20,000 nt of DNA from an uncultured virus (IMG/VR IMGVR_UViG_3300030060_002428) (IMGVR_UViG_3300030060_002428), one strand, 5' to 3'; positions 1 through 20,000 are shown, numbered from the stretch's first letter. Translations and numbers: made by a program. Notes: generated from the letters alone by a model not told the origin.

Positions 1-3000
1 TGGTAATTTCATACCAAGAGAATTGGCTATGCTGTTAAGCATTACTGTGCCAGAAGAATTAGTTGCTAGCACTCCACGGTTTTGCATTACCTCGCGTGCT
101 GTCATTACTTGGCCTAGAATTTCTGACTTTTCTGCAAAGTTGTGCGCCATATCTCTAAACTGGTACAGGCTAGTTGCAATATCTCTAGATATGTCTTTAG
201 CAGGCACAACGTTTGTATAGTATACAGGAACTTTTTTATCTAATTCTCCTGTAAGACTATTGTAATTACCAAACATGTCATCTGTCTCCATGGGAGTTGT
301 TGCTTCTGCAAGTATATCTTTTGCAGTTTTAAATACTCCTTGTTCTTTTAGCCTGTCAATATCTTTCTTTCTAATAGTAGGCATTAAGTACGAGTGCGTA
401 TCCCATGAGTTTTTATCCATTCTATTAGTGCCTATCAGATCATGGGCAACCTTAAATTCTTTTCTAACAAAGTCATAATACTTTTTGAGTCGTGGATCGT
501 TTTGGATCTTTTTATACTTTTCGTTAGCATATATTGACTCTTTAGGCTGTGACCACTCTCCTCTAGGCTTACCCGTAGAGGTAAGATTGTTTCTTTTTAT
601 ATTTTTTAGCTGCTGTATTCTAGTTTCGATCATTATTACAGCATCCTCTTTACCTTTATCCTGCGCGTTCTTTTTGTATTTTTCTTGCTTAGCAATAGCT
701 CTTTCAAGTTTAGCTAGTTCTGTTTTCCAGGTAGGGCTAGGCTCATGATTTTTTTCGTACCATGTATCTCGTTCTGCATTGTACCTAGTTACAGTGTTTC
801 TATTGTTTAGCCATTTCTTAGCAGCTGTATCGTATTCGCCCTCTGTTTTAAAGTCTCTACGCAAAGGTTTGCCGTACTTCTGAGCAAGAGTAGTAAACAT
901 TTCTCTTTCTGCAGCTCTTGCTTTATTTAAATCTAAAGGCTGCACAAGGCTTAGTGCTTTTATTCTTTGGCGTTTACCGTCTTTCCAGCTATCTATTTCT
1001 ACTTCTTCTAGCAGATCTTCGTTAAGTTTTTGTACATCTGCTTCATTTTGCCCTTTTGCAAATTCTGTATAGGCTTCATTAAGCTCAGGCTTAAAGTCTA
1101 AGTCTCTTTCGTTTTTTCTAATGTTTGCGCTGTCAATAAGCTTAGCTAGCATTTGTATAGACTGCTCGTTAGAGTACATGATAGGGTCAAAGTAAAAAGC
1201 AAATGCACTTTTATCTTCGTATGCAGACTCTAGTTCTCTGACTAAAGCACCTCTTCCAGGTATCATTTTTTCTTGTAGCTGCTGTACTGCTAAGTCTAGT
1301 CTAGCCTGTTCAAATTCTTCTTGACTTATCTGCTCACTATCTAGACGGTCTTGTAACTCAATATATCTTCTATCATTTTTCTTTAGATGATTTCTCCAAC
1401 GGCCGTGCTCTTTAATATTATCTATATGCTCTTGTATTTTAGCATCTATTTTTGTGTTATGGAATGGCTGTAACGCAGCTGCTACCATGGGTATAATATC
1501 TTTCTTGTAGTTATACTCCATGTCTTCAACCTCTTCGATAATGTCAAAGATCCTTTCTTCCATATTAGCCAAACGTTCTGTATCAAGACGCGGTCTTGCT
1601 TGACCAGTTTTTTTGATTTTTCTTTGTTTAGCTCTTACAATATTTTTAAGCTGCTTTATAGTATCCATTGCATCAATGGTCTTTTTCAGCTCATACATGC
1701 GAGCCATGTTGGCCGGCGATGCTGCTTCTTCTGGACTTTGCTTAGATAGAGCCACTAGTCTATCGTACTCAGCACGTGCTTTTGATATAGTTTCTGCAGA
1801 TGCTGCTACAAACTTGGATAAGTCTTCTACTTTCTTTACGTTAGACAGTGTAACTTTTAGTACTTCTTGTCTATCTAACGCTTTTTCTTTTGCTTTTTGC
1901 TGCTCTTCAGTAGCCTCAGGTAAGTTTCTAATAGCTCTAAGCTCTGACTCTACTTGAATCTTTGCTTGGTTTACTAGGTCAGTTAAGTTTTGCTCGCCTC
2001 TACTTTGCTGCGCATAAGAGCTTAGGGGGTTGATCATTGCAGATGCCCTGAGCTCGTTAGCAAACATTTCCTGCGCTAAGGTAGCTGCTGTTGCAGGTGT
2101 AGATTTAATCCCTAGCTTGTTAAGCATGTTAGAGAAAGCTCTAAATATTTTGTTAAGCAGAACTTGTATAGGGTTAGGATTCTTTCTAGTAATCTTAGCT
2201 CCCTCTAAGCCTATTGCTGTAGCCAGTACCTCTTTGTCTAGCCTTTCGCCCTGTAGGTCTGGATACTTTTCTGCTACTTGTGTATACAGGTCAGTTCCCT
2301 TTAATTGTGCTATTGCGCTAGCGACTGCAGGGTTTCCAGTTCCTAGCAGATCAATGTACACGTGACCAAACTCGTGGTACACTGTGTCGTCTGCCATCAT
2401 ATCAGGATTAAACTTTATAGTAACAGGCTCTCCTATCTCATGCGGTTGTACTTCTCCTAATACGTCTAGGCTTGGGTCCATTACAACATCTATCTCTACG
2501 CCTACCTTAGAGAATGCATTCTTTAGGTGCGTAATCTTTTGCTGGTTTCGGATTTCTGTGTCTTTTTGTCCTTGAGATATTCTACTTTGGTCTGATGTAT
2601 TTTCAGCTCTAGCCATCTCATCTAGCTGGTAGTCTTGTGCAAACGCACTAGTTTCCCTGCTACGCATGTACTCATCAATATCTCGACGTGTCTGGTATGT
2701 TGCATCAGCATTTGCTTCGCCGTCCTGTGGTATAGACTGCAGTACTGACTCGTTAATAGCTGCTCCAAACAGTCTATTTGTAGGAGAGTATTGTGTAGGC
2801 TCTGTCTTTTTAATAAAGTTATAGTCTACTAGGCCTGGATACTTACTGTTAATACGGTCAAGCTCTTTTAGCTGAGTATTAACACCTTTACCTTGCACGA
2901 CATATAGGTTACCGTCGTTACGGCGTAGTATACTATTGTCACGTAGTATCTCATATACTCTTTCAGCACTCTTCTTTTCTGGAGCTGTATTATCAAAGTA

Positions 3001-3060
3001 GCCGTACAGTTCTGTGTACAGTTTACTTTCTTTTCCGTCTACAAAATATTTACAAGGCAT
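1..3060 (-). CDS. Giant virion cargo protein with an N-proximal zincin-like metallopeptidase domain (crAss-like RNAP-adjacent protein); 3'-truncated, >=1020 aa
   Basis: Not in the ORF track because it runs off the window. Manual translation: ATG at 3060-3058 overlaps the RNAP stop (TAATG), and I found no in-frame stop down to position 1. It begins MPCKYFVDGKESKLYTELYGYF and has DTVYHEFGHVYIDLL (HExxH at 2376-2362, aa 229-233) with a downstream KEVLA glutamate (aa 277), followed by a long helical, charged region. Confidence 0.9.
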   Translation of the reverse strand, partial: MPCKYFVDGKESKLYTELYGYFDNTAPEKKSAERVYEILRDNSILRRNDGNLYVVQGKGVNTQLKELDRINSKYPGLVDYNFIKKTEPTQYSPTNRLFGAAINESVLQSIPQDGEANADATYQTRRDIDEYMRSRETSAFAQDYQLDEMARAENTSDQSRISQGQKDTEIRNQQKITHLKNAFSKVGVEIDVVMDPSLDVLGEVQPHEIGEPVTIKFNPDMMADDTVYHEFGHVYIDLLGTGNPAVASAIAQLKGTDLYTQVAEKYPDLQGERLDKEVLATAIGLEGAKITRKNPNPIQVLLNKIFRAFSNMLNKLGIKSTPATAATLAQEMFANELRASAMINPLSSYAQQSRGEQNLTDLVNQAKIQVESELRAIRNLPEATEEQQKAKEKALDRQEVLKVTLSNVKKVEDLSKFVAASAETISKARAEYDRLVALSKQSPEEAASPANMARMYELKKTIDAMDTIKQLKNIVRAKQRKIKKTGQARPRLDTERLANMEERIFDIIEEVEDMEYNYKKDIIPMVAAALQPFHNTKIDAKIQEHIDNIKEHGRWRNHLKKNDRRYIELQDRLDSEQISQEEFEQARLDLAVQQLQEKMIPGRGALVRELESAYEDKSAFAFYFDPIMYSNEQSIQMLAKLIDSANIRKNERDLDFKPELNEAYTEFAKGQNEADVQKLNEDLLEEVEIDSWKDGKRQRIKALSLVQPLDLNKARAAEREMFTTLAQKYGKPLRRDFKTEGEYDTAAKKWLNNRNTVTRYNAERDTWYEKNHEPSPTWKTELAKLERAIAKQEKYKKNAQDKGKEDAVIMIETRIQQLKNIKRNNLTSTGKPRGEWSQPKESIYANEKYKKIQNDPRLKKYYDFVRKEFKVAHDLIGTNRMDKNSWDTHSYLMPTIRKKDIDRLKEQGVFKTAKDILAEATTPMETDDMFGNYNSLTGELDKKVPVYYTNVVPAKDISRDIATSLYQFRDMAHNFAEKSEILGQVMTAREVMQNRGVLATNSSGTVMLNSIANSLGMKLP
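2230..2376 (-). other. Zincin-like metal-binding site (HEFGH plus distal Glu)
   Basis: Translation gives H229-E-F-G-H233 and E277 in DKEVLATAIG, preceded by beta-strand-like segments (VEIDVVMD, LGEV, VTIKFNPD). Confidence 0.8.
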
Positions 3061-6000
3061 TATGCTTTACAAAGTTTTAATGGTTGTTCTACACTCTCAG
3101 GCATTATTATGTCTTTAGCTGTTGGTTCAGATACATAGTTGGCTCCAGGCAGATCTGTTGTACCTTCGCTAGGTATAATGCTATCCATAGAATCTTTAGA
3201 CGATAGTATTTCATGCATTTTATTAGGAACACCTAGAGGCTGTAGCCTTTTGTAGTTGCCTACGAATGGATTAGCACTTTCTCTAACATACATAATAGGT
3301 CCTTCAGTAGGGTGGTAAGTTACGAAATATGCTGCAAATCCTTTATTTTTTGTGTGAACAGCTGTTTTCTTAGACATTGGTACACTGTTAGGTATGCCAG
3401 GAGTCTTAGTTCCAGGCATTCCTTTGTACCTAACTACAGGTAGTATGTTTCTGCCTCCAGGCTTTGCAGTACCAAAGCTTCTTACGAACTCCTGCACAAA
3501 GTCTTGGAAGGTTTCGTTTAGCAAAGTTGTTTCTGCATTGTTTGCAAAGAACTCTACAGGTGTAAGCGCTATAGGACTATCACTTAGAATGTTTGTAGTA
3601 AACGCTTCTACAGGTATTAGATCAATATACGCACCAGGTCCTGGAGCAAATCCGTTTGTTAGTAGCTGGTTTGCTACTATCATTTTACCTAGCTGTTTAA
3701 TTTCTGCAGCTTCTTGCGCATTGTCTCTATCATTTGCATAGTCTTCAGGCCTAGTCAACAAAAGAAGTAGATCGTTAGATAGCCTATTCTTATCATGCGC
3801 AGTTAAATCAGTAGAGTTATCAAACTTTACTTTAAACACTTTTGCATTTAGATCATTGTTAGCTGGATCTTCTTGTAAAGATTCTACAAACGAGTTTCTT
3901 GATAGGCCAGGATACTTTTCTTTTAGAGTAGTTAATCTAGCTGCTATATTGTTTGGTCCTGTGTACATTGCACGTGCTGCTTGCTCTGACATTAGTGGAG
4001 CTAACGGGCTGTTACGGTCTGCCATCATTTTTAAGAACAAGGCTTTGTCTATAAACTTATGCTGAGCAGGAGTAAGCGTGTCAATGTTTAGATCCTGTTT
4101 TAGTATTTGCTTAAATGTAAAGAATGCGGGCCTATTGTTAATTAGCCCTGCAGTTTCCGCAGTGTTTAATGCTGTTTGAAGTATACCACGGTACGCAATA
4201 GATATGGGGTATACAGCTCTTATGCCTACAACATTTTCTAGCGCCGATGATACAAATTCAGTTCCTCCTTTAATAAGAGACGACTCTGGATCTCTAAAGA
4301 ATGCATCTTCTCTTTCTAGGTGTGCAGCAATAGCTGACATCTCATTAACATTCTCTAGTGTGTCTGGAGTTATTAGCTGATTTAACGTTTGTAGTTGTCT
4401 ACCTACTTCAAAGAATTGCTTAAAGTTGCCAAGGTATGCAAGTTGTTCTGCAGGAATATTATATTCTTCTACTGCCATTGCTGTCCCAACCGCCGACGCT
4501 TCTAACTTAGCACTGCTCATAGGAGATATTAATTCAGGCACTACTCCTTTATATTTATTAGCTACAGTGTTTATTGCTTTAGACATTCTATTCAGTCCGT
4601 AGCCTTTAACCTTAGATTCTTCTATTACCTCCTGTATTATAGGCTGTGATAAGAAGTGTACTACATCTTGCACTGGCACACCTACGCTTAGCATAAATCC
4701 AGCTACAGGCACAGTGTATAAGTTATCATTAATATCTACTTGTACAGGCTTTTTAGCTGCGTCTACTGCAGCAGATAGGTATAACGATATGTTTTGGTCT
4801 ACGTATGTACCATCTACTGCCTGTATCATGCCTAGCATGTTTAGAGATTCTCCATTAAGATTAAGAGCAATTTTACTTTGCAGAGGATTGTTTGATAATA
4901 CATTGTGCCCTGACAAGAAGTTAGCCCATAGACCAGTTAGTCTTTGTCCAGATTTATTTCTTTCCTCTTGTGTAAGCTCTACGAGTGGGTGGTTTCTATC
5001 TTCAATAGTGCCTACTCTGCGCAAGTTTGCTCCTAGTTCGTACAGTTTAGGGTCATCTAGAGGGTTAAGCACCTCTCGTAGGTGTGTAGGAGATGTAATT
5101 ATACTGTCCATTAGACTATATAATGCTGTATCCCTTTCTTGCCTGTTCATTTTAGACGGATTTTTTGCAAAGTCTACACCTATGCGCTGCATTTTACCAT
5201 CTACTACTTCTGTCTCAGGCTGTATAATGTACATTTTATCAATATCAAAGTCAGATCCCATCTGCACTGTAACTCCTCCAGGCACCATAATAGCTTTCTC
5301 ATGGCTTTCAGGTAGGAAGCCTACAACCTTTATTGGCAGTGACGAGTTCTTACCTTGGTTAGGTACACGGTACCCAATTACTTCTAGAACTTTCGGATCT
5401 ACATCTGCAATGTTTGTTCCAGGAGGTAGCCCTAAGGTACTAGCTTTAATTCTAACCTCTGCTCTATTAGTCCCGTCGTACATTCTTAGCTCTCCGTCTA
5501 CACCGTGCCCGCCTGCTTCTGCTATTTGCACTAGCTCTTTACCTTTAATCATTTGATTAAAAATATCTTGCTTTACAGTGCTTAGTAGTATCTGCTCAAA
5601 CTTAGCTTGGTAGTTAGGGAAAGATAGAGGCACTCTAAATCTCCAGTCGTACCTACCGTTTGGTACAATGTCTAGACCTTTTAGGTAGTTGGCAGGCAGC
5701 TCTCTGTCTTTTACTTGTTGTGCAAGTCTGTCTCTTACCTTTTTTAAGTGGTCAAGTTTTGCATCAGCATACTCCTGTGTATCACGCTCAGCTTTTTGCA
5801 AACGCGTAATGCCCATACTTTTATTAAAGTTGTTAGTATCTTCTAAAATATTTTCTGATACAATGTCTTGGAATCTTGCAAACACTTCTGCGCCTTTCAT
5901 TGTCTGCCCATCTACATTATAGTTAGCATCTGCAACAATGTTAGCAATAATGTTTTTTCTAATTTGCCTAGACATTAGAATTTTCTCTGCCTTTTTCTTT

Positions 6001-9000
6001 GTTATAATCTGAGGCAGGCGCAATCCTTTAGAGTTCATTATAGTAACGTTAGACGTATCTAGCTCTGCTTGATTTTGTAAATCCTGTACACCCTTTCTTG
6101 CTCCCTTAGTAGCACTTCGTGTATTAATAACATGCACTTTGCCGCCTTCCATTGCGTTGTGCATTTTTCGTAGCTCTGGAAACTCGTTTGCTATTTCGTT
6201 TGTAACAATTGTGTATGAATTTTTATCCATAGACAATGTCATCGTACCATTTCTAAGTGTAAGCTCTTCGTGGTAAGGCTTAATAGGATAGATAGACACA
6301 GGGTTGCCATTATCATCTACCCATCCCAGCCCAGCTTTATCATTTGCATAAGCTTGGTTGTCTCTTTCGCCCCATTGCCCCATTCCCTGCATTATACCAC
6401 GGTACATTTCTGTGCTAATAAAAGACTGCGCATCAGTTTTATTAACACTTCTATACTTATCAGCTATATCATTAGCTACTTCTACGCTGTTACCTGCTGC
6501 AATTAAATTGTCTTGAATTCTATCAGCAACTTCAGCAGCTCTCGTTGGATCTACAAAGTCAAAGTCTGCTACTGTAACTGTGTTGTAATGAGACATCATA
6601 CCATATGTAGGATCGCCTTTAGCTTCTCCTGCAATTAGTAATTTTTGCCCTGGCGTTGTAACTAGCGCCATACGTTTATAGAAGTCTGCAGTATTTTTTG
6701 TAAATCCAAACCCGCCTCTTAACAATTTAGCTGCTTCTATACGCCCAACAAAGTCATTAAAGACAAAGCTTTTTACAAAGTCTTTTCTAGTAGACATGTC
6801 AGTATGCACCTCTTCTTTTAATGTAATGTCAAACTTTTCTATCTGCGCAGTAACATCGTCTTCGTATTTGTTAAGTTTATCTTTAACTTGCTCTACAAGA
6901 CTATTAAGCCTAGCTTCAAAATGTTGACCTTCAGGGCTGATTCTATATCTTTCATTGCCTGATACATAATTTTCTACTTGACTTGCAAGAGTTTTAAGAC
7001 CTTCTATACTGGTAGGACTTCCGGGCATATACTCTTCTTGCAAGTTTAAGCCTTCTATCTGAGCCATTGTAAAGGCTCCGCCGTCTCTTGCAGTAGGGTT
7101 AGATCCTTTTTTGTAATGGTACCCTTCTATAAGTTTTGAGACATCTCCTGTTCTTACAGCTGTTGCAACCTGCTTAGCTGCTTGGTCTAGCCTAGCTAAG
7201 TCTTGTAGTATTAGCCCTTTGATTATATCTTCTTTAGATACTCCTGCAGCTTGTTGGTTATCATATCTAGGCTGGATCATAAAGTCTAGATTTCTACCAG
7301 GCATTGTAGGTATAGCTATTCTAGTTAACGATGCATTATTGTTATTTGCAAAAGCATTTAGCCTTACAATAAGCGATGACCTAGATGACTGCTCGTCGTA
7401 GTCACTTATGTTACCGTTAGCTTCTTTTAAAGAGTCTAAAGATCTTATTCCTTCTTCTTCAAACGCTTCTCTAAAGGTAGGACTATTTAAAAGGCGTGTT
7501 ACTAAAACAGACTGGTGGCGGAAATCACGCCCTGGATTATACAAAGGGTCTTGTAGCATTGTCTGCAAAAGCTCGTTACCTTGCTTAGACTTTATATTTA
7601 ACACTACCTCGTCTAAAGTTGTTGGTAGGTTTACAGGGTAATACGATTTGTTTGTACCACTTATAAAAGATCCTATGTACTTACTGTCAAACAGAGGAGC
7701 TATGGAAGCTATCTTGTTTATAGTTGACCCCTCTTTTGTGTAAATGTTTTTATTTTGCCTAGCTACTTCTCGTAAACTTGCTAGCGGTTTCTTTTTACCT
7801 CTGTACGATGGGTTAATATAGTTGTTAAATAACAACATTCCATTTGCAGGTCTACCACCTATAAATCCACCTATCGTAAAATACCTAGCTAGATTAGCTT
7901 TTGTAGTTTCTAAGGTAGGTCCGTACTGCATTCCTAAACTCCACAAGTAATCTCCTAAGGCATCTACTGCCTCGCTAGGTACTGGATCATTAGGTCTAAG
8001 ATTTGCAGTAGACCTTTCTAGTCGCTCCCAAGCATTGTCAGCAGCTGCTAGCTTTTCTGGGATTACTTCCAAATTACCTTCTGCATCTTCTTTGTATAGA
8101 GCCCTAGGATTAGGAGCCTGCCTCTCAATAGAGTTATTGTTGTATCTAGTACGGTAACGACGTGCTGTATCGTTCTCGTTAGGGTTAGACATTTTAGTAG
8201 TAACCTTTACATTGCCCTCTGCATCTATCCCGCGTTCTATTCTAAATAAAAGAAACTGCTTGTAAGCTAGCGCAAAGTTAGAGAATATTGCTGCTTGCTG
8301 CCTAGGCTCTAGCCCTCGTAGTCGTTCTACTATAGGAGTAAGTTCTGGTTTGTATTTAGCTCGCTGCTCTAATTCTGCTAGCATAGCTGGAAAGCTTGAC
8401 TGCTCTGCTGTAGCTTGCGCTAGTTCTCCATACACCATATCAATAGGCATATCAGTCTGGTAGCCTTGGCCTAATAGTTTTTTTAGTATAGAATTTGGGT
8501 TATCGTACTTGATTCCCGCAAGAGCGCTTTTAGCTTCAGCTGATAAACGATCTCTAGGATTTTCTTGTAGTCTTGCCACACTGTATATACGTACAGGGGT
8601 CTCATCCATTTCTACTAACATCTCCCCTTCGCTAGTCATCTTCATTCCATGGTTAGCCAAGCGGTCTTGTATTTTATCTCTCCACCCTACAGTTTCAATG
8701 TTACCTGTAGCTTCATTAATTTGACTGTTCCATCTGTCGTAGACGTCAAAGAATACTATTTGTCCTGCAGGTGTAAGTGTCACTCCTTCAGGTAAGTTAT
8801 TTAGTAGGGCATTAAAGTCTCTACCGCTTTCTTTCCAGATATTGTACAGGTCTACTGCTGTGTTAAGATCTTCTGGAGATCTGCTAAGGCCATCGAAGCT
8901 TTCACCTAATAGCATTTTTGCAAGTGTGCCGTTATCTATAGGCCTGCCTTTAGCATCTAGACCAGGGTTAAAGAAATCATTTACACTATCAGGGTTTCTA

Positions 9001-9452
9001 AAAAACTCTGGATTTTGCTTACGTGCTTCAGACACAAATGTAGATGCAATGTCTAGTATCTCTGTTTCTAGCGCTGGATCAACTAAGTTTTGTGCTTGTG
9101 TTACAGCGATACTTTGTGCATCTACTCTTGCTTTTGCAGCTACTCCTGCTTTTGTAACAGTTAGCAGATCACCGTTAGTGTTCATCCACTCTACCTTACC
9201 ATTGCCGTATATAAGTTTAGGCTCACCATTGTCATCAGTAAACAGGCTATCAGCAGCGTTAGGATTAGAATTCCATTTCATACCAAACCAGTCTGTAAAC
9301 TCTTTAGTTTGTGTATACGCATACATTTCGTAAGCGTCCTGATTACCAACTATTGTTGCTAGCTCTTTATAAAGCTGAGAAGGTTTACCGTTAGGAGCGT
9401 TTACTCCAACAACAGCACCTGTCTTTTTATCTCTTATTATTTTACACGCCAT
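3060..9452 (-). CDS. Virion-packaged single-chain two-barrel (DPBB) DNA-dependent RNA polymerase, crAss-like/phi14:2 gp66 type, 2130 aa
   Basis: The catalytic loop GSDFDIDK (DFDID at 5252-5238, aa 1401-1405) is preceded by GYRVPNQGKNS (RxP, R at 5369-5367) and followed by VDAAK (4766-4752). Upstream are first-barrel-like motifs TDAQSF, IKP, DKNS and SATKG. DFDID in place of cellular DFDGD, the size and the context match crAss-like virion RNAPs. Confidence 0.93.
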   Translation of the reverse strand: MACKIIRDKKTGAVVGVNAPNGKPSQLYKELATIVGNQDAYEMYAYTQTKEFTDWFGMKWNSNPNAADSLFTDDNGEPKLIYGNGKVEWMNTNGDLLTVTKAGVAAKARVDAQSIAVTQAQNLVDPALETEILDIASTFVSEARKQNPEFFRNPDSVNDFFNPGLDAKGRPIDNGTLAKMLLGESFDGLSRSPEDLNTAVDLYNIWKESGRDFNALLNNLPEGVTLTPAGQIVFFDVYDRWNSQINEATGNIETVGWRDKIQDRLANHGMKMTSEGEMLVEMDETPVRIYSVARLQENPRDRLSAEAKSALAGIKYDNPNSILKKLLGQGYQTDMPIDMVYGELAQATAEQSSFPAMLAELEQRAKYKPELTPIVERLRGLEPRQQAAIFSNFALAYKQFLLFRIERGIDAEGNVKVTTKMSNPNENDTARRYRTRYNNNSIERQAPNPRALYKEDAEGNLEVIPEKLAAADNAWERLERSTANLRPNDPVPSEAVDALGDYLWSLGMQYGPTLETTKANLARYFTIGGFIGGRPANGMLLFNNYINPSYRGKKKPLASLREVARQNKNIYTKEGSTINKIASIAPLFDSKYIGSFISGTNKSYYPVNLPTTLDEVVLNIKSKQGNELLQTMLQDPLYNPGRDFRHQSVLVTRLLNSPTFREAFEEEGIRSLDSLKEANGNISDYDEQSSRSSLIVRLNAFANNNNASLTRIAIPTMPGRNLDFMIQPRYDNQQAAGVSKEDIIKGLILQDLARLDQAAKQVATAVRTGDVSKLIEGYHYKKGSNPTARDGGAFTMAQIEGLNLQEEYMPGSPTSIEGLKTLASQVENYVSGNERYRISPEGQHFEARLNSLVEQVKDKLNKYEDDVTAQIEKFDITLKEEVHTDMSTRKDFVKSFVFNDFVGRIEAAKLLRGGFGFTKNTADFYKRMALVTTPGQKLLIAGEAKGDPTYGMMSHYNTVTVADFDFVDPTRAAEVADRIQDNLIAAGNSVEVANDIADKYRSVNKTDAQSFISTEMYRGIMQGMGQWGERDNQAYANDKAGLGWVDDNGNPVSIYPIKPYHEELTLRNGTMTLSMDKNSYTIVTNEIANEFPELRKMHNAMEGGKVHVINTRSATKGARKGVQDLQNQAELDTSNVTIMNSKGLRLPQIITKKKAEKILMSRQIRKNIIANIVADANYNVDGQTMKGAEVFARFQDIVSENILEDTNNFNKSMGITRLQKAERDTQEYADAKLDHLKKVRDRLAQQVKDRELPANYLKGLDIVPNGRYDWRFRVPLSFPNYQAKFEQILLSTVKQDIFNQMIKGKELVQIAEAGGHGVDGELRMYDGTNRAEVRIKASTLGLPPGTNIADVDPKVLEVIGYRVPNQGKNSSLPIKVVGFLPESHEKAIMVPGGVTVQMGSDFDIDKMYIIQPETEVVDGKMQRIGVDFAKNPSKMNRQERDTALYSLMDSIITSPTHLREVLNPLDDPKLYELGANLRRVGTIEDRNHPLVELTQEERNKSGQRLTGLWANFLSGHNVLSNNPLQSKIALNLNGESLNMLGMIQAVDGTYVDQNISLYLSAAVDAAKKPVQVDINDNLYTVPVAGFMLSVGVPVQDVVHFLSQPIIQEVIEESKVKGYGLNRMSKAINTVANKYKGVVPELISPMSSAKLEASAVGTAMAVEEYNIPAEQLAYLGNFKQFFEVGRQLQTLNQLITPDTLENVNEMSAIAAHLEREDAFFRDPESSLIKGGTEFVSSALENVVGIRAVYPISIAYRGILQTALNTAETAGLINNRPAFFTFKQILKQDLNIDTLTPAQHKFIDKALFLKMMADRNSPLAPLMSEQAARAMYTGPNNIAARLTTLKEKYPGLSRNSFVESLQEDPANNDLNAKVFKVKFDNSTDLTAHDKNRLSNDLLLLLTRPEDYANDRDNAQEAAEIKQLGKMIVANQLLTNGFAPGPGAYIDLIPVEAFTTNILSDSPIALTPVEFFANNAETTLLNETFQDFVQEFVRSFGTAKPGGRNILPVVRYKGMPGTKTPGIPNSVPMSKKTAVHTKNKGFAAYFVTYHPTEGPIMYVRESANPFVGNYKRLQPLGVPNKMHEILSSKDSMDSIIPSEGTTDLPGANYVSEPTAKDIIMPESVEQPLKLCKA
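5238..5252 (-). other. RNAP catalytic Mg-binding motif DFDID
   Basis: Minus strand GAC TTT GAT ATT GAT, in frame within the 2130-aa ORF, 39 aa after the RxP arginine. Confidence 0.93.
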
Positions 9453-12400
9453 TAGTTACAACCTTGATCTAATTGATTTTTTGCTATTGTATTAGCTGCA
9501 CCTCCTTGTCCCATTAGCCTGCGCAGCTCTTCGAGATTTGCCTCTTGCTCAGTGCTATTGGTATCGCTTTCTCCTAATGCATCAAAATCTACCTGATTCA
9601 TTACTGCTGTTCCAATTGGAGATGTAGCAACAATTACTTTACCAGTCTTTTTATTTGTAATCGTACCCTTATCAATATCCACAACATAAGTGTTGTTGTT
9701 ATATTGTATTTCTTGAGTAGGAGAAGTAGTTATTTCTCCTGTAATGATACTGTCAGAGCTCTTGGAAATTTTTGGAGACTCTGTATTTTCTACTATTTCT
9801 TGTATGGTACTACCTTTTAAGTTGCCTTTTGCAAACTTAACTCCTATATTATTAAATACACTACCTCGTACGTTTGTTACGTCTGTAGTTAATATTGCAC
9901 TATGTCCAAACCTACCAGCTATATCACCAGTCTCTGGACTAGCATTGTTGTCAGTACCAAACAGGTAGTCTTGATAGTTGTCGTAAGATATACCTGTTAC
10001 CTTAGATACATACGGCGCATTAGCATTTGACGCTGCAATATCTACATTGTACTTTTTCTTTTCTAAGAACTTTCTTAAGTCTGCTGTTATGCCTCCTTTA
10101 TTATCCATCTCTGCATATAAATCTACTATGCCTGTTGATGAGAAATTTACCTGAAACTGTTTAGTAGCAGCTGGAGCCATTTTACGCCAAGTGTCTGCTG
10201 ACTCATCGTACTGTACAAAATCAAACCTTGGTGACCCGCCTCTTTGAATAGCTTTAGTAAGCTCGTTTTCATTTATACGAACCATGGCAGTAGCATTGTT
10301 TGATGGAGACCCGTACACTATATAATTTGTACCATCTTCAAATTGATTAAACTCTAGAAAAGTACTGTTCTGCATAGCATTTTTTCTAGAGTCTGCTGTT
10401 TTACTATTTGCTACTATTTCTGCAGCGTCCGCAAGGTTTCCTTCTGCAAGCTTATTGAATACTACATTTTGTGCCTGCCCGCTAAGCTTAGCAGTGCTTG
10501 CAATAGCAAGTTTAGACTTACCATCAGGACTGTTTTCAGGTCTAATAACTACAGCTATTTGACCAGAAGTAAGGTTTTCAAAGTTTTGATGGTTTCCTAA
10601 GTCTGCATCAATAGCTTCATTACCTGTTACCCAAGCGCTTACTCCTCTATCTGCGCTTACTGCAGCTAGGGTAATACTTCCTTCATCATTCTTTTGGAAT
10701 ACGTCAGTAGGTTTAGAGAAGTAAGGATCGTATCTATATTGTTGCTCTCCAACTGCATCTACTTCTGTAGGCGTCTGCACTCTTGTATGATTAAGATTTC
10801 TTGGAGAAGCTGCTTTCTGACTAATAACGCTAGTAACTCTTTCTCCTGACAGCAGTTTTTTTACAAGAGCCCTTCTGTCTGCAGCAGATGCGCCGTCAGA
10901 CTTTTCTAGCTTACCTACAATTTCTCCATTAATTTTTACATAGATAGGCACTACATCAAACGCTCCTGATACAGATCCGTCTGCAAGAATACGTGGTGAC
11001 ATACGACCGCCTTCTTTAAAGAAGTCATTCTCGATTAATTCAAACTCTACTTCTGTGCCTACAGGTGATGCAGCTAGTAGCCCTCGATTAGGAATAAGAA
11101 CCGTTGCATTTCCATTTAAAACATCCTCATTAGTTTCTACTGCGCCATTAGAAGAAGCTATTCTTACATACTTATAGCCAGTTTCTTTTCTGCTTATTAC
11201 ATTGTCGTCGTTAGCCATGCCTACTCCTATGTTACCTCCTGTAGGAGTTTCGTTAGGAGGCACTGCAGTCTGTGCTGCTTCTTGTAATGCATCTCCAAAT
11301 GTAGGAGCAGCTGGATCAACGTCTTCCCAGCTAGCATCGTCCATATCATCAAACAAACCAAGTTGTTCTCCAGCTTGTCCTGTATCATTGTCTGGAACAG
11401 GCGCATTGTTTAGGTCCTGCTCAATCTTAAGGGTTTCGTTATCTGTAGGAGCAGTTACGCTTTCTTCTACTGGTCCTTCTACATCAGCCCTCGCGCCTTC
11501 AATTTCTCCTCTAGTATCAGCCTTCTCTCTTGCATTGTCTTCCCTTTCAGCGCTTGCTGCGTCTGAGAGCTCAGCCTCTTCTCTAGGTCCTGCAGTTTCA
11601 TTACTTCTTTCATTTTCTAAACGTTTTAATTGTTGTTGCTCTACAGTTATTGCAGCTTGCAGTTCTTTAATTCTTTTTTGAGCTTCTTGGATTGCAGCTC
11701 TTTCAGTGTCCATAGTTTTTACAGCCTGCCTCTTACCAGCAATCCACTCATCTGTAGCCTTCTCTGTCGTGCTTGCAGCATTTAACGACTCGACTCTAGC
11801 TTTTGCATCAAGGCCTTTTTCCTTAGATACTTCTATTTGGCTCTGAAGTTCAGTAATTTGATTTTCATGATCTTCAATTACCTGCATTGCTTTATTTTCT
11901 GCACGAAGTATTTCGTTAGATGTAGGAGTTACAGATTCTTTACGGTACTTTAGTACCTTTTTCATCTCACGGATTCGTGCAGTCAACGAGCGCATTTCTT
12001 TGTTTAATGCTTTTAATTCAGGATCATTCTTTAGATCTTCTTTAGTTGCACCTGCTTCCTGAATATACGACGTACGCAGATTATCAGAAGCTTGCAGAGC
12101 TGCATCAAACAGCCGCTCTAATTCATATATCTCTTGCCTTAGAGATGATGTAGTTTTGCTACCATGCTTACCAGTAGTAGCTTTTCTTCTAATAATTTCT
12201 TCTGCAGCTTTCTTTTCTAACAAAGCTTGCTCACGGTTTATAGTAGGCTGGCCTTCTACTTTTGCCATTTCAGCCAGGATAATATGATAAGCTAGTGTTT
12301 CTACTCTATCCTGAGGCCCCCATATAACATGTCTGTTGCCCTGCTCATCAAATAAGCTGACAGTTTTTATACTACCGTCTCTTGTACGTTCTATTGCATC

Positions 12401-15244
12401 TAGTGGATTTGTTCTGCGGTTAAAGAATCGTTTACCATCAATAATAAATTCTCTACCATCTGCACTAGCTGCTGTTACATCCCCAAGGTTTTCTTCTTTA
12501 AATGCATCTTCTACAGCTTCCGCTACTCCTGCGTTTACCGCGTCAGCAACTTTCTCTTCTGTAGTCTGACCCTCTTTCTGCTTGTTTAAGGCTGCTTCTG
12601 TTTCTGTTATAGCTCTAGTTAACCCTGCACGTTGTGTAGGACTAAGACTTTCTGGATCTATGTTTTTTAAATCCTTTAGTCTATCTTCAAGAGACATATT
12701 AATTCTCTCTTGTATAAAGTTATCTGCAGCTGCCTTTTCCGCTGCGTTTAGTGCGTCTAGCTTGTCCTCAAGCTGTTGCTTTTGTGCAGGCGTCAAGTCG
12801 TTTACATCAGGAGAATTATTAACAAGATCTGCTGCAGTAGCAGAGTTGCTAATAGCTTCGTCTAATCTATTTTGAACTTGTTGTTCTTTAGCAATACGCT
12901 CATTATTTGCTACCTCTTCTTGGAAAGCCTGACGATAGAAAGGATCAGACACTAGTTTATTATAAGCATTTAGTGCACGGTCTGTATCTGTCATAAGACC
13001 TATATAGTCATTTGCTTTTCTACCAAACTGGTCTGCAGCTATTGCACTACCATTAGGGCCTAGCATTTGGTCCTGTATATTTTTTAGTGCTGTAGCTATT
13101 GCAGTATTTCTTTTTTGAAGATAGTTTTCTGCAGAAGGAGTCTCCTCGGTAAGAGTAACATCTTCTTCAGCAAAGGCTTCAGATATTGCTTTTTTAACAT
13201 CTATGCCAGAGTTCTTAAGTGCAGGGTCATTGTCAATAACTTGCTGCATGTCTTTTTCCAAAGACTCCATACGTGCATTTCTATCTGTAATAGTTGCACC
13301 GTTATAGATTAGCTCATTTCTTAATGCTTGTTGTTGCTTATAAACAGCATCTTCTGCAGCTCTTTCTGCCTCAGTCATCCTCATTCTAGGTAGACCTTTA
13401 GTCTTGTCAGGCAGAGGAAACATTTCATTAACGTTTTCGTACGTAGTTTTTAACTGCTCTAATTTACCTTTAAGATTGTCTACTATTTGAGCTTGACTTT
13501 GTCCGCCCGCCTGATCTGCAAGAGTTAGCGTATTACCGTTTGAATCTACGCCTGTGTACCCATACATCTTTTTAAACTCTCCCTCAGACATGCTCTTAGA
13601 GTCTTCTAGCTTTTCCATAAGCACATCGAATCCTCCCTGATCAAGAATGTTGAGCCCATTATTAAAGATCATCTTCATCTGGACATCTTTAAATCCTTTA
13701 TGATCTCCGTTATCTAGAGCAGTTTGCATTTGCTGCATGTAACTTGCATTAGCATTTTCTGCCTGTGCAGCTGCCATAATGTTATCAAAGTACCCTGCAT
13801 CAATAGCAGCTTTTAAATTTGCTGCGGCAGCCTTTCTATTTTTGTACTCGCCTCTAACTGCAGCTCCTCCACCTCCCATTAGGCCACCAGTAAGAAAACC
13901 TACCAGCATAGACTCTCTACCTTCTTGTGTGCCAAAAGTTTCTGAGAGTCCTTTCATCATTGCGCTCCATCTGTCACCTACTCCTCCGTCATGATATTTA
14001 TCAGTATGAAGAGTGCTTGAGTATATGTTAGACGCAAACTGCAAACCCTCTTGTGTTGCCTCTTCGAGGCCTCCTACAACAACTGGCTTTAGTCTGCTGA
14101 GAGCGCTACGCATTACACCTCGTTCAGCCAGGGTATCAATTACCTCTCTTTTGGCTGCGCCAAATACAACGTCTTTATTAGCTTTAGTAGCGCCTTTAAA
14201 TCCTAACGCCATCTTACCAAACATTAAGGCGTTTGTACCACTAGTAACAACTATGTTCAGTCCAAAGTTTGCATTACCTGCAGAGATTGCAGCTTTGTCT
14301 ATTTTAACTTTTTCTGCATCTGGTATTTGCCACTCATAATCTAAACCATTGTCTTCTAAATATTGTTGTACAAGATCGTCATTTACACTTCTTTTAGTTT
14401 CTCTTGCCTCTACAGAAGATTCTGCAAGAGACATCATAACAGCTGCGTCAAGCATTTGCCCTGCTCTTAAAGCAGACTTGCTAATTCCCGCTCCTTTTGC
14501 TAAAGTAGATGCAAGTTTAGTTCCTTGTGTAATAGCCTTAGATAGTCTATACATACCTAATAGCTTGCTACCTGCACCTACTGCTTGAACTCCTTTAGCC
14601 GCCATTCCTACATACCCTGTTCCTCCAGTTAAAAACATAGTTGCAACAGCTCCAAGACTATATCCTAGTCCATTTGCAACAGTGTCTGCATAAAAGTTGG
14701 CTGTTCCCATTTTTTGCAGAGTTGTCATATTCATCTCTGCTTCAGTGTAGTAGTTAGGATAGTGCTCACGCATCCACTCATTTGCGCTATCTACAGTTTG
14801 GCCAACTGCATTGTCGTAATATTGACCACCTGTTGCAAGCTCCCCAAGCCCAAATAACAATCCTACTGTATTTTCTGCTATAGCTCCTAGAGTAGTAACT
14901 CCCGCCTTAGATAATCCTCTACCCCATTTTTCTGCTGTAGATTGGTTACGAGCTCTCTGTTCATCCCAGTTTAAATCTTGTCCTAATGCAACGTTATAAG
15001 CTTGATACTTAGATAAGTCATCTCCAGTTCTTCTAGTCCAAGTATGTCCCTGCATTTGTGCCGCTAACTCTCCTGGCTTACCTCCAAATGTAAGTCCCTT
15101 TACTTGCGCAGCTCCTGTAAGAGTTTGCCCAGTCATAGGATTTACTAGTAAGTCTTCTCCAGAAGTTGAATCTATTCCAGGAGCTTGTTCTCCTAGAGTC
15201 AATCCAGTCATAGGATTTACAAGGGATGTATTTTCTTCTGCCAT
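9452..15244 (-). CDS. Giant virion cargo/ejection protein, 1930 aa: N-terminal membrane-like helices, central coiled coils, acidic linker, C-terminal globular region
   Basis: Long ORF coupled to the RNAP gene by TAATG. It has Gly/Ala-rich hydrophobic segments (GLGYSLGAVATMFLTGGTGYVG; MLVGFLTGGLMGGGGAAV), an EEATQEGLQF motif, and heptad-like E/K/Q/A stretches around 11600-12200. The function is inferred from composition and synteny. Confidence 0.75.
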   Translation of the reverse strand: MAEENTSLVNPMTGLTLGEQAPGIDSTSGEDLLVNPMTGQTLTGAAQVKGLTFGGKPGELAAQMQGHTWTRRTGDDLSKYQAYNVALGQDLNWDEQRARNQSTAEKWGRGLSKAGVTTLGAIAENTVGLLFGLGELATGGQYYDNAVGQTVDSANEWMREHYPNYYTEAEMNMTTLQKMGTANFYADTVANGLGYSLGAVATMFLTGGTGYVGMAAKGVQAVGAGSKLLGMYRLSKAITQGTKLASTLAKGAGISKSALRAGQMLDAAVMMSLAESSVEARETKRSVNDDLVQQYLEDNGLDYEWQIPDAEKVKIDKAAISAGNANFGLNIVVTSGTNALMFGKMALGFKGATKANKDVVFGAAKREVIDTLAERGVMRSALSRLKPVVVGGLEEATQEGLQFASNIYSSTLHTDKYHDGGVGDRWSAMMKGLSETFGTQEGRESMLVGFLTGGLMGGGGAAVRGEYKNRKAAAANLKAAIDAGYFDNIMAAAQAENANASYMQQMQTALDNGDHKGFKDVQMKMIFNNGLNILDQGGFDVLMEKLEDSKSMSEGEFKKMYGYTGVDSNGNTLTLADQAGGQSQAQIVDNLKGKLEQLKTTYENVNEMFPLPDKTKGLPRMRMTEAERAAEDAVYKQQQALRNELIYNGATITDRNARMESLEKDMQQVIDNDPALKNSGIDVKKAISEAFAEEDVTLTEETPSAENYLQKRNTAIATALKNIQDQMLGPNGSAIAADQFGRKANDYIGLMTDTDRALNAYNKLVSDPFYRQAFQEEVANNERIAKEQQVQNRLDEAISNSATAADLVNNSPDVNDLTPAQKQQLEDKLDALNAAEKAAADNFIQERINMSLEDRLKDLKNIDPESLSPTQRAGLTRAITETEAALNKQKEGQTTEEKVADAVNAGVAEAVEDAFKEENLGDVTAASADGREFIIDGKRFFNRRTNPLDAIERTRDGSIKTVSLFDEQGNRHVIWGPQDRVETLAYHIILAEMAKVEGQPTINREQALLEKKAAEEIIRRKATTGKHGSKTTSSLRQEIYELERLFDAALQASDNLRTSYIQEAGATKEDLKNDPELKALNKEMRSLTARIREMKKVLKYRKESVTPTSNEILRAENKAMQVIEDHENQITELQSQIEVSKEKGLDAKARVESLNAASTTEKATDEWIAGKRQAVKTMDTERAAIQEAQKRIKELQAAITVEQQQLKRLENERSNETAGPREEAELSDAASAEREDNAREKADTRGEIEGARADVEGPVEESVTAPTDNETLKIEQDLNNAPVPDNDTGQAGEQLGLFDDMDDASWEDVDPAAPTFGDALQEAAQTAVPPNETPTGGNIGVGMANDDNVISRKETGYKYVRIASSNGAVETNEDVLNGNATVLIPNRGLLAASPVGTEVEFELIENDFFKEGGRMSPRILADGSVSGAFDVVPIYVKINGEIVGKLEKSDGASAADRRALVKKLLSGERVTSVISQKAASPRNLNHTRVQTPTEVDAVGEQQYRYDPYFSKPTDVFQKNDEGSITLAAVSADRGVSAWVTGNEAIDADLGNHQNFENLTSGQIAVVIRPENSPDGKSKLAIASTAKLSGQAQNVVFNKLAEGNLADAAEIVANSKTADSRKNAMQNSTFLEFNQFEDGTNYIVYGSPSNNATAMVRINENELTKAIQRGGSPRFDFVQYDESADTWRKMAPAATKQFQVNFSSTGIVDLYAEMDNKGGITADLRKFLEKKKYNVDIAASNANAPYVSKVTGISYDNYQDYLFGTDNNASPETGDIAGRFGHSAILTTDVTNVRGSVFNNIGVKFAKGNLKGSTIQEIVENTESPKISKSSDSIITGEITTSPTQEIQYNNNTYVVDIDKGTITNKKTGKVIVATSPIGTAVMNQVDFDALGESDTNSTEQEANLEELRRLMGQGGAANTIAKNQLDQGCN
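15129..15220. repeat. 17-bp exact direct repeat, two copies 75 nt apart, encoding a duplicated LVNPMTGxTL peptide
   Basis: ccagtcataggatttac at 15129-15145 and 15204-15220; the protein reads SLVNPMTGLTL and LLVNPMTGQTL. Confidence 0.9.
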
Positions 15245-17750: not shown

Positions 17751-20000
17751 TATTCTTCGTCTTCGTTTTCTGTAGTATCAGTTGGTACAGGTTCTTTAAT
17801 AGCTATGTTAAAAATGTCAGCAATGTCTGCATTAGTGTATGGCTGTTGTGTTCTAGGATTCACCATACCTAATAGCATTTGACGTAGTCTTGCTCTTTCA
17901 TAGATTCCCATGTCCCCAGTAGCTCTAGCTAAGTCTTGCTCTGCTTGATAGCTCATAACATCTCCAGCTAAACCAGCAGTTCCTGATGCTAACCTATCAA
18001 GACCCATCATCTTCTGATTTTCTTCAGCAACTCTTTGCTGCTCTCTAAGCTGTGTATTAATCATGTCTACTTGCATTCTGTTTCTAACATTTTGTACATC
18101 TGCCTGCATTCCCATCTGAGCTTCAGCATTTGCAATCTGAGTATTAGCCTTAGCTTCTGATGCAGCAATTTGCATATCCCCAGTTTGCTTACGTCTGTAA
18201 GCTGCCATCTTACTTATAATGTTAGCTGGCCCGCCGCCGCTAGTTTCAATAAATCTATTTAACGCTCTGTTATCTGCAGCGTTAGCCATACGCTCTGCGT
18301 TATAGCTTACTCTATCTAGGTTAGGAGCTTTAATCCTGCCAGGAGCTCCCATTAGTTTTTGTGCCTTTTCTTTATGTAGCATAGCGTACATAGCAGGCCC
18401 TAACTGAGCAACACCTGCTGCAATAGCTAAGTTTGGAACATCTTTGTACAGTCTGTCTAAAGCTTTCTTCTCTGCTTTAGTTAGACCATCTGCTCCTTTA
18501 GTAGTTTCACTAGTGCTTATAGTGCCATCTTCACTAGGTACAGAATCTGTATCTGGCATGTAATAAGAGTAATCTTCGCCTGGTACAAGATCTCCTATTT
18601 CCTCTGTCGCTTCTGTCTCTACACCAGTATCTATAGTAGACGGAGGTATAGTTTCTACCTCCTGCAAATTAGTATTATTACCGCCAGTAGTGCTGCTTGA
18701 TCCTCCACCAGTGTTAGACTGATTATTATTAGTAGGTGGAGCCTTGTCTTGCCCCTGAGACGCTCTTCCAGTAAGGAAACCTTCTTGGTCTCTACTTTCA
18801 AAGTACTCTGACTCTTTATATTGAGTTCTTATAGGAGCTTGAAGATTATAAAACGAAGATGCCTGTATATGATCAACTGATCCAGGCATTGTAACTGTTC
18901 CATCTGGTAGTATATAAGATTCCATACCACTAGTACGAGTTTTACGAATAAGTCCTCCATATGCATTTACAGCATTTAATGCGTTATTAGGATTATCTAC
19001 GCCATATGGATCTTCGTCAATTTCGTATGGATTTGTACCAGGGTTAAATCCTGCGAGTTGGAATTTTCTAGGACCTCCTGCACGCATCTCTACCGCATTA
19101 GGGTTTCTACCAGCTGCACGCTCTTGCATCTTAGCTAGTAGATTAATATCTTTTTGATTACCTCCTTTACGAAGTATGTCTTTATGTCTTTGCGCAAATG
19201 ACTTTCCGCCTAGCTTTAAGTGCTGAGAGAAAAAGTAATCACGCTTACCGCCTTGTTTTTTCATATTTACTTTATCCATTGTTTCTCCTCCCTCAACCTC
19301 AGTTTGCGGATCTAAAAGTATACCGCCCTTTTCATGGCTTGCACCTTTAAACTCTACCGCATCAGATCCTGGTATAGGCTTCATCATACCTCCTGGTAGT
19401 TTTACGCCCCCCATACCAAACTTGTTTGCAATCTTTTCTACTCGTTCAGACTGGCCCTTATGCATCTTAGATGCTTTAGCTAACTCTTTAGAAATCTTTA
19501 AAAGTCTTTTAGAACTAGTGTTTCTTTCTCCTCCCATCTTAGCCATGTCTGCACCAAAGTCATAACCTGAATACATTCTAGACTTCATAGCTTCTTGCCT
19601 CATTCGTCCGCCAATTTTAGACTCATCATATTTTTGCTTTAATTGAGCTCTATCTTCTGCTTTTAAAGCAGAGCCTCTTTCAACAAGACCTTTTCCTACT
19701 CCATATAGTCCTCCAGCAATTCCACCTATAAGCCCTGATATTGGAGCTAATGGTCCACCAATAGCTGCTCCTATCGTTCCCCCTACTGACGCTCCAGTTG
19801 CAGCAGAAGATAATATACCACCTGTTGCTTCTCCTACATTCCATGTAGTTGGGTCATCATCGTCTGCGACATATTTTGTTACCTCTCCTATTACTTTTGC
19901 ATAAGGAGCCACGGCGCCCATAGTAGATGAAACCCCCGCTGCTGTAGAACCTGCAATACCAGCACTTCCACTTGCTCCTTCAGCTGCTGCAGCCGCTTTA
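17750..20000 (-). CDS. Glycine-zipper-containing virion cargo/ejection protein; 5'-truncated, >=749 aa
   Basis: The frame stays open upstream of the track's ATG at 19921 to the window edge (KAAAAAEGASGSAGIAGSTAAGVSST-MGAV...), so the true start probably lies beyond 20000. It contains a GxxxG zipper (GASVGGTIGAAIGGPLAPISGLIGGIAGGLYGVGKG), a GASHEKGGI...EVEGGE module, a low-complexity linker and a Q/N/A/M-rich helical C-terminus. Confidence 0.75.
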   Translation of the reverse strand, partial: KAAAAAEGASGSAGIAGSTAAGVSSTMGAVAPYAKVIGEVTKYVADDDDPTTWNVGEATGGILSSAATGASVGGTIGAAIGGPLAPISGLIGGIAGGLYGVGKGLVERGSALKAEDRAQLKQKYDESKIGGRMRQEAMKSRMYSGYDFGADMAKMGGERNTSSKRLLKISKELAKASKMHKGQSERVEKIANKFGMGGVKLPGGMMKPIPGSDAVEFKGASHEKGGILLDPQTEVEGGETMDKVNMKKQGGKRDYFFSQHLKLGGKSFAQRHKDILRKGGNQKDINLLAKMQERAAGRNPNAVEMRAGGPRKFQLAGFNPGTNPYEIDEDPYGVDNPNNALNAVNAYGGLIRKTRTSGMESYILPDGTVTMPGSVDHIQASSFYNLQAPIRTQYKESEYFESRDQEGFLTGRASQGQDKAPPTNNNQSNTGGGSSSTTGGNNTNLQEVETIPPSTIDTGVETEATEEIGDLVPGEDYSYYMPDTDSVPSEDGTISTSETTKGADGLTKAEKKALDRLYKDVPNLAIAAGVAQLGPAMYAMLHKEKAQKLMGAPGRIKAPNLDRVSYNAERMANAADNRALNRFIETSGGGPANIISKMAAYRRKQTGDMQIAASEAKANTQIANAEAQMGMQADVQNVRNRMQVDMINTQLREQQRVAEENQKMMGLDRLASGTAGLAGDVMSYQAEQDLARATGDMGIYERARLRQMLLGMVNPRTQQPYTNADIADIFNIAIKEPVPTDTTENEDEE

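Follow-up and report, generated by a model that had tools for sequence, protein, structure and literature searches.

How a podophage transfers megadaltons of protein through its narrow tail ahead of the DNA is the question addressed here, with a stretch of 20,000 nucleotides from an uncultured virus, IMGVR_UViG_3300030060_002428 (the window, by which the whole stretch is meant). Its cargo genes are called A to E in this work, and the analysis concerns the cysteines at the ends of three giant products, C, the virion RNA polymerase (RNAP, or D) and E. A described counterpart is the pre-ejectosome of the cyanopodophage A4 (Anabaena phage A-4L), in which cryo-electron microscopy revealed that Cys1715 of gp27 and Cys5 of gp26 form a disulfide and that the C-terminal helix of gp27 enters gp26 (PNAS 2025, PMC12002296; accessible text). 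In the A-4L genome these residues are the only cysteines of two consecutive large ejection proteins, of 1717 and 1114 residues (the latter starting with MSKHC), and the neighbouring ejection protein gp29 is cysteine-free. The signature is kept in Pf-WMP3, Pf-WMP4, TR020 and CHP58, that is, in 4/4 records fetched out of 18 non-A4 records, at 23–27% identity. The accessible text describes the bond, a single link between two channel-forming proteins, as stabilising a folded pentameric core, and it offers neither an ejection chain nor a general rule (PMC12002296).

Suppression of cysteine has been described for the N4-like phages (Schitoviridae; N4 gp50, DEV gp71, gp72 and gp73), where, according to the accessible text, a giant virion RNAP and its co-ejected partners are almost cysteine-free. 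Homologues of gp71 contain 0.00075% cysteine against 0.865% in the proteomes, which was linked to passage through the envelope and periplasm (Nat Commun 2024, PMC11445570). By contrast with the phages studied here, that RNAP is one polypeptide of ~3,400 residues with zero cysteines and, in the text accessible, no reported terminal cysteine; it resembles the fused state discussed below. The T7-type proteins gp14, gp15 and gp16 are similarly cysteine-poor and ejected through a short tail. No cysteine is found in gp15 and gp16 of T7 and P-SSP7 or in gp35–gp37 of phiKMV; unlike the proteins considered here, gp15 and gp16 have no facing terminal cysteines, and a folded core holds them together.

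For the crAss-like phages, gp47, gp49 and gp50 of crAss001 were identified as virion cargo by mass spectrometry, and partial unfolding during ejection was proposed (Nature 2023, PMC10172136, accessible text). The same source reports that the virions as purified hold disulfides, in a gp57 dimer and in tail hub and ring proteins. The disulfides given in its accessible text lie in tail and portal-vertex proteins and the word 'cysteine' is absent from it, as are the strings 'cys' and 'disul' from that of the phi14:2 preprint (10.1101/2020.03.07.982082); a covalent bond joining the cargo proteins is mentioned in neither. Cysteine suppression in N4-like phages and the A4 disulfide as a feature of one structure are thus already in print; no description of terminal cysteines or of a covalent cargo chain in Crassvirales was found in the literature searched.

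The window contains five co-linear open reading frames (ORFs), all on the minus strand (Table 1), and their translated products hold four cysteines in 6,663 residues (0.06%). Each of the four sits 1–3 residues from a terminus that faces the neighbouring gene, so that the A4-type signature is found twice, as C-1 then N3 and as C-2 then N3 (C-2 and N5 in A-4L). A first-pass annotation of the window had listed these cysteines and their absence from the proteins of 834 and at least 749 residues; its count and positions are exact, as all four codons translate to cysteine and retranslation gives none in the other two proteins. In the same phage clade, the background amounts to 1.22% (298 cysteines in 24,429 residues, from 76 ORFs of at least 150 residues at 12 loci, a set that is not deduplicated and includes cysteine-free homologues of A), far above the cysteine frequency of the window cargo. 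At this rate ~81 cysteines would be expected in the cargo, and the Poisson probability of four or fewer is 9.5e-30. The observation of 4 against ~81 excludes chance.

The pattern is retained in all six of the first relatives, which were obtained by a protein search of IMG/VR and share 94–95% (L001 and L002) or 36–43% (the other four) RNAP identity with the window; it thus holds down to 36% identity. A wider survey covered 85 sources in 54 clusters, comprising the window and 84 loci, of which 77 distinct loci came from the best 80 of 468 relatives in a profile search. Sources sharing more than 40% of their RNAP 5-mers were placed in one cluster, and ORF classes were assigned by BLASTP together with hidden Markov models (HMMs) built for this analysis. 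A cysteine was called terminal when it lay within 12 residues of the terminus, junctions cut by a contig end were left out, and the upstream ORFs of L032, L037, L048, L055, L071 and L076 were taken as C by position only. Split C/RNAP junctions carry both cysteines in 53/53 sources (29/29 clusters). Split RNAP/E junctions do so in 71/72 sources (42/43 clusters), a count that is 70/72 by a first-ATG rule and 71/72 after the E start of L073 is set at the MAKKC directly past the RNAP stop. The co-conservation in orthologous triplets that the first-pass annotation had put forward as a check is therefore observed at the split junctions. The outer termini are devoid of cysteine, with 0/32 for the N-terminus of C, extending to the relatives what the first-pass annotation had noted for the first giant of the window, and 0/79 for the C-terminus of E. 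Of the 271,899 residues in the giants of the 54 clusters, 146 are terminal cysteines and 103 (0.038%) are internal ones; in 31 clusters, internal cysteines are lacking altogether. Judging from these loci, facing terminal cysteines at split cargo junctions are a rule across the order.

The conservation of these residues stands out from their surroundings. In an alignment of the C-terminal 250 residues of 27 diverse RNAPs (A2), the cysteine is the only invariant column at a mean column identity of 16%, and in that of the N-terminal 600 residues of 27 diverse E proteins (A3) the invariant columns are M1 and C3 only; mean column identity is 16–19% across the RNAP tail and E head alignments. The described phages show the same pattern in their homologues of C, D and E. 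In crAss001, the sole cysteine of gp47 is C2339 of 2341 residues, gp50 contains C5, C1334 and C2404 of 2412, and the sole cysteine of gp49 is C5. In phi14:2, g067 ends with its sole cysteine, C1797; the cysteines of g066 are C3 and C2179 of 2180 residues, and g065 contains C3 alone. The third phage, cr85_1, obeys the rule as well. In both crAss001 and cr85_1 the gp47-type gene and the RNAP operon are on opposite strands and convergent, and the gene keeps a single cysteine codon 2–3 residues from its end. As a separate observation, RNAPs of gut Steigviridae (L007, L008 and ~25 gut loci, e.g. L038–L067) contain one or two conserved internal cysteines, corresponding to C1334 in crAss001 and to C1331 and C1404 in cr85_1, which the window clade and phi14:2 lack.

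The terminal cysteine codons could instead be the by-product of a junction signal in the DNA, TGTAA near TAATG, or of chance. Within the window this is what the sequence looks like, for all four codons are TGT followed by AA and adjoin TAATG overlaps. Among the relatives, however, the residue after the cysteine varies (K, A, L, P, I, G, S, N or stop), TGC is used in 27/247 terminal cysteine codons, and the spacing from the cysteine to the gene end ranges from 0 to 11 residues. Moreover, the gp47 gene of crAss001, which is on the opposite strand and away from the RNAP gene, still encodes a C-terminal cysteine, and chance is opposed by the Poisson probability of the depletion by itself. Because the codon context is variable and gp47 is not adjacent to the RNAP gene, the DNA motif was dropped as a candidate; we attach practically no probability to this explanation.

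The position of the cysteine pair was further compared with that of the gene boundary, using as a landmark a homologous zincin-like domain with the motif HEA[FY]H, which lies ~180 residues ahead of the C-terminal cysteine of crAss001 gp47. In L015–L017 this motif is located inside the RNAP ORF, 104–643 residues past the N-terminal cysteine (~100 residues from the start in L017), and the separate upstream C is without it. The tail of crAss001 gp47 matches the head of the L017 RNAP (E 7e-12), and the fused protein of L026, which aligns across the boundary of L017 with 37% identity (E 3e-57), is cysteine-free there. Both break points, the crAss001-type and the L017-type, carry a cysteine pair. 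These alignments indicate that the pair follows the gene boundary and not a homologous position, and its presence at two non-homologous break points argues for repeated acquisition. Coordinates in the C-family HMM proved ambiguous for locating the boundary shift, as upstream C ORFs, too, extend to the last positions of the model, and the landmark and pairwise alignments were used instead.

Some phages fuse the cargo genes into one polyprotein (preprint 10.1101/2020.03.07.982082, accessible text), and the survey contains 13 C–RNAP and 10 RNAP–E fused junctions. None has a cysteine within ~250 residues of the inferred junction, the position of which was derived from the offsets of high-scoring segment pairs to about ±100 residues; in 5/13 C–RNAP fusions (L025, L041, L054, L077, L084) the C part was inferred from a long N-terminal extension, C-family matches being weak or none. 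The complete C–RNAP–E polyproteins, of 5,329–5,636 residues (L020, L022, L025, L029, L035), have zero cysteines, and the incomplete ORFs of this type in L019, L024, L033 and L049 have none either. The loss of the pair upon fusion had been proposed as a check by the first-pass annotation, and it is seen at every fused junction and in the five complete polyproteins.

Partial fusions are informative about which cysteines belong together. The C–RNAP fusions of L026 (3743 residues), L028 (4209 residues) and L084 (4125 residues) have their sole cysteine near the C-terminus, and the separate E has Cys3 or Cys4. Conversely, the RNAP–E fusion of L075 (3833 residues) has Cys5 only, and the separate C carries the C-terminal cysteine. 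Cysteines are hence lost or kept as junction pairs, implying that the end of protein n is paired with the start of protein n+1, which is the pairing the first-pass annotation had drawn from the window. That annotation had also considered cyclisation of the RNAP from N- to C-terminus as a redox lock, or one site shared by all four cysteines between the subunits. In their favour, tetrahedral coordination would be satisfied by four cysteines, and either end of the RNAP carries one. Both alternatives are contradicted by the partial fusions, as L026, L028 and L084 keep the cysteines of the RNAP C-terminus and E without the one of the RNAP N-terminus, and L075 keeps only those of the C end and the RNAP start; we regard them as highly improbable.

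Fusion by itself is less telling with regard to another explanation, in which each terminal cysteine acts alone, by tying its protein to a cysteine-containing portal, tail or capsid-interior protein, by forming a homodimer or through modification of the free end. As fusion abolishes the termini, the loss of both cysteines is expected from such a single-terminus role too, and this counts against the fusions as evidence of pairing. Furthermore, the tail and portal-vertex proteins of crAss001 form many disulfides (PMC10172136, accessible text). The argument for pairing consequently rests on the cysteine-free outer termini and on the analogy with A4. Inner termini nearly always carry a cysteine and outer ones never do, the cysteines come as a C-terminal and an N-terminal partner at all but one of the split junctions surveyed, and A4 provides an example of such heterotypic pairing (accessible text of PMC12002296). 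A solitary role for each residue is, on balance, unlikely.

On a maximum-likelihood tree of the RNAP core, obtained by a quick search with 50 rows, at least 6 split/fused changes are needed at the C|D junction and 4 at D|E; some branches are long and these numbers are approximate. L041, L072, L076 and L082, whose core is shorter than 300 residues, are omitted. The all-split clade of the window nests in a well-supported group that contains fused forms. In a residue-level alignment of split termini with fused junctions, the fused forms offer no aligned counterpart to the first 50–90 residues of E. As far as a comparison of genomes can tell, these data show that the facing cysteines belong together and that the pair can replace a peptide bond. 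A functional link between the facing termini is in our view very probable.

With respect to the chemistry, we consider a head-to-tail disulfide chain of C, RNAP and E fairly probable on the present analysis. The likeness to A4 extends to the start of the downstream protein (MSKHC in gp26, compared with MSKRC and MAKKC in crAss001). The crassvirus arrangement is distinguished from that of A4 by two links instead of one, by three proteins with the RNAP in the middle, by a rule that spans the order and by the interchange of a peptide bond with a cysteine pair. The pairing of E with the RNAP was also addressed by complex prediction, as the first-pass annotation had suggested, with residues 1–500 of E and the 250-residue RNAP tail as input. 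The score was 0.35, whereas none of 3 controls scored above 0.00; the output listed no contacts. The mark applied in this prediction is reached by 116/157 solved complexes and 2/215 mismatched pairs; among those passing it, scores of 0.60 or lower were obtained for 18/157 solved complexes and for both mismatches. At least 22% of contacts recur between runs, and the partner has a predicted local distance difference test (pLDDT) value of at least 49. The prediction, with its low pLDDT, lends weak support to the pairing.

The facing cysteines might alternatively meet through a metal ion or a non-covalent clasp, in a two-cysteine site similar to a zinc clasp with further ligands. The comparative data are silent on this point. 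The reducing cytoplasm, the site of assembly, would allow such a bridge to form, and the search for a thiol oxidase (Erv1/Alr) in 5 related records gave no match, although the control genomes were silent too. Against it, in the alignments of RNAP tails and E heads the cysteine alone is invariant, with no conserved His, Asp or second cysteine nearby, and His is scarce in the window proteins (0.6–1.2%). In addition, a site with two ligands would not hold unfolded proteins together, and the sole solved case with the same signature, A4, is a disulfide (PMC12002296, accessible text). A metal-mediated or non-covalent contact is accordingly regarded as improbable.

Several observations weigh against a disulfide chain or against its proposed role. 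Phage assembly takes place in the reducing cytoplasm, and many phages of this kind live in the anoxic gut or in anaerobic hosts. No thioredoxin-fold gene was detected in 5 related records, one of them at least 90% complete, by a search whose control was positive in 13/14 cases. Links between the cargo proteins of crassviruses, by disulfide or otherwise, have yet to be observed, and the crAss001 maps leave the cargo unresolved (PMC10172136, accessible text). Between the A4 proteins gp26 and gp27 and those of the crassviruses, no sequence similarity is detectable (HMM bit scores ~0; best BLASTP E 0.013 over 40 residues), so that the precedent is an analogy, an independent example and not a homologue. 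The RNAP tails are unconserved except for the cysteine and no docking interface is evident; from their gaps and composition, the terminal tails are probably disordered.

Individual lineages depart from the rule or complicate it. The sole exception at the RNAP/E junctions is L072, where the first cysteine of E is at residue 20 and the phage has 13 internal cysteines. Some lineages retain 13–18 internal cysteines alongside the terminal ones (18 in L082 and 14 in L074), which indicates that the purge and the pairs are separable. The view of the first-pass annotation that internal cysteines are purged against mis-pairing is upheld in part: the suppression in N4-like phages was explained differently, and these lineages tolerate many internal cysteines. 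In L046, the RNAP gene is broken without a cysteine pair by an insert of ~1.3 kb at 10852–12178, containing a 255-residue ORF (10923–11690) with motifs that we take to be LAGLIDADG-like. A search of this insert against Rfam gave no intron match. The break is possibly an intron or a homing-endonuclease insert, and the gene may be spliced or recently split. The RNAP frame of L010 changes from 1 to 3 relative to L006 at 15346–15349, through a frameshift or an error in the sequencing of this metagenomic contig. Finally, cleavage of the polyprotein has been suggested (preprint 10.1101/2020.03.07.982082, accessible text), and if polyproteins were cleaved before packaging, continuity of the chain could not be the selected property.

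If the disulfide chain is adopted, the following mechanism may be proposed. The giants C, RNAP and E are kept nearly free of cysteine, as are other ejected phage proteins, and their four remaining cysteines lie at two junctions, between the end of C and the start of the RNAP and between the end of the RNAP and the start of E. Each facing pair would form an intermolecular disulfide within the particle, joining C (1930 residues), RNAP (2130 residues) and E (~1480 residues) head to tail in one unbranched chain, that is, in the topology that relatives obtain with a single polyprotein of 5,300–5,600 residues. A link at the extreme chain ends would yield a linear assembly able to pass a narrow channel; the location of the cysteines within a few residues of the termini may be understood in this way, as an end link stays unbranched, the only topology expected to pass the channel. 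The proteins would be stored in a fixed 1:1:1 stoichiometry and, partly unfolded, would leave as one thread through the channel of portal and tail; the links would then be broken in the reducing cytoplasm of the host. The timing of disulfide formation, travel as a single thread and reductive release are inferred. That continuity of the thread for ejection is the selected function is a tentative suggestion, to which we give somewhat less than an even chance. The wider view, in which exit as one thread is selected, polyprotein and disulfide solutions have repeatedly been switched, release is by redox, the solution arose independently in A4 and the principle is general to short-tailed phages, is put forward with similar reserve.

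Table 1. Positions of the cargo genes, terminal cysteine codons and motifs in the window
Feature	Position	Strand	Description
Protein A	17750..19999	(-)	at least 749 residues, 5' end beyond the window; first cargo-block gene in view; 0 Cys
Protein B	15246..17750	(-)	834 residues; 0 Cys; second small cargo protein by position
Protein C	9452..15244	(-)	1930 residues; crAss001 gp47 / phi14:2 g067 type; first giant of the proposed chain; sole Cys is residue 1929
Cys1929 codon (TGT) of C	9458..9460	(-)	penultimate residue, ...DQGCN
Stop/start overlap TAATG of C and RNAP genes	9450..9454	(-)	
Protein D, virion RNAP	3060..9452	(-)	2130 residues; phi14:2 gp66 / crAss001 gp50 type; Cys only at 3 and 2128
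Cys3 codon of RNAP (MACK...)	9444..9446	(-)	invariant column in RNAP alignment A1
DFDID catalytic motif of RNAP, residues 1401-1405	5238..5252	(-)	
Cys2128 codon of RNAP (...LKLCKA)	3069..3071	(-)	antepenultimate residue, at the end of a variable tail rich in gaps
Stop/start overlap TAATG of RNAP and E genes	3058..3062	(-)	
Protein E	1..3060	(-)	at least 1020 residues in view, 3' open; crAss001 gp49 / phi14:2 g065 type; sole Cys is residue 3
Cys3 codon of E (MPCK...)	3052..3054	(-)	
HEFGH of E, residues 229-233	2362..2376	(-)	zincin-like HExxH; aligns with HEFGH of relatives

The identity of the RNAP, as labelled in the first-pass annotation, is upheld. The protein matches PDB entry 6VR4, the 'DNA-dependent RNA polymerase' of phi14:2 (E 6.9e-34), and tblastn matched 96 phage records, with matches falling in 'putative RNA polymerase' genes of crAss-like phages at ~25% identity. 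The residues D, F, D and D of its DFDxD motif are invariant in alignment A1. Protein C matches phrog_32390 (E 1.3e-17) and clusters with the C family by BLASTP and HMM; unlike crAss001 gp47, it has no HExxH motif. For the five window proteins as a whole Pfam and PHROGs yield almost nothing, and neither A nor E has a match in either. In the six first relatives, full-length E measures 1456–1480 residues (1480 in L001 and L002), and Cys3 is its sole cysteine. The presence of the homologues in virions is known from the mass spectrometry of crAss001 and from tandem mass spectrometry notes in the phi14:2 record. By this homology, C, RNAP and E of the window are assigned as virion cargo of a crAss-like phage.

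Two distinct HExxH motifs occur in the cargo block. The first is the HEFGH near residue 230 of E, in the window and in phi14:2-type relatives; phi14:2 g065 has HEIMH at residue 245, and the corresponding gp65 has been called zincin-like (preprint 10.1101/2020.03.07.982082, accessible text). The second is HEA[FY]H, at the end of C in crAss001-type phages and at the start of the RNAP ORF in L015–L017, which is absent from C and D of the window.

The contents of Gly (12.0%) and Ala (11.6%) in protein A are unusually high and that of Trp is just 0.13%; the equivalent upstream ORFs of L001, L002, L003, L006, L011 and L013 are likewise cysteine-free. ORFs of class B lack cysteine in all loci listed. 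BLASTP revealed no significant similarity of B to crAss001 gp46 (E 0.70), and its equivalence to this protein is therefore one of position only. The stop/start overlaps A|B, C|D and D|E are TAATG, and the remaining one of the four is TAATATG. The guanine-cytosine skew is negative in all 2-kb windows and the cumulative skew falls steadily to -2.47, consistent with the location of all genes on the minus strand.

Four near-identical loci (L078, L080, L081 and L083) display no long ORFs under translation table 11. With TAG read as sense, an RNAP-containing ORF at 2–13429 of at least 4475 residues appears, with 54–58 in-frame TAG codons, and the terminal cysteine pair is kept (C-2 / N5). To judge from this reading of the frames, these loci represent a stop-codon reassignment in a crAss-like lineage.

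In P-SSP7 (L088, 5532–6558), the small internal protein 032 ends with ...SGC and the next protein, 033, starts with VC...; in T7 (L087, 3729–4319), gp14 starts with MC... and gp13 has no terminal cysteine. These small proteins may represent a miniature facing-cysteine motif in T7-like phages. The gp27- and gp26-like proteins of Pf-WMP3, Pf-WMP4, TR020 and CHP58 (L090–L093) bear the public labels 'ParB-like partition nuclease' and 'tail fiber protein; host specificity', which conflict with the pre-ejectosome assignment by cryo-electron microscopy in A4.

Split and fused architectures of the cargo genes have been noted in Crassvirales for years. The strict sequence rule described here confines cysteines to facing termini, where a peptide bond can take their place, with at least ten switches on the tree, and it turns the question of protein transfer through the podophage tail into a concrete hypothesis. 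If true, it would explain the order and stoichiometry of cargo delivery, supply a redox trigger for the activation of the injected RNAP, and link the two architectures to each other. In uncultured phages, co-ejected proteins could then also be recognised by this sequence signature.

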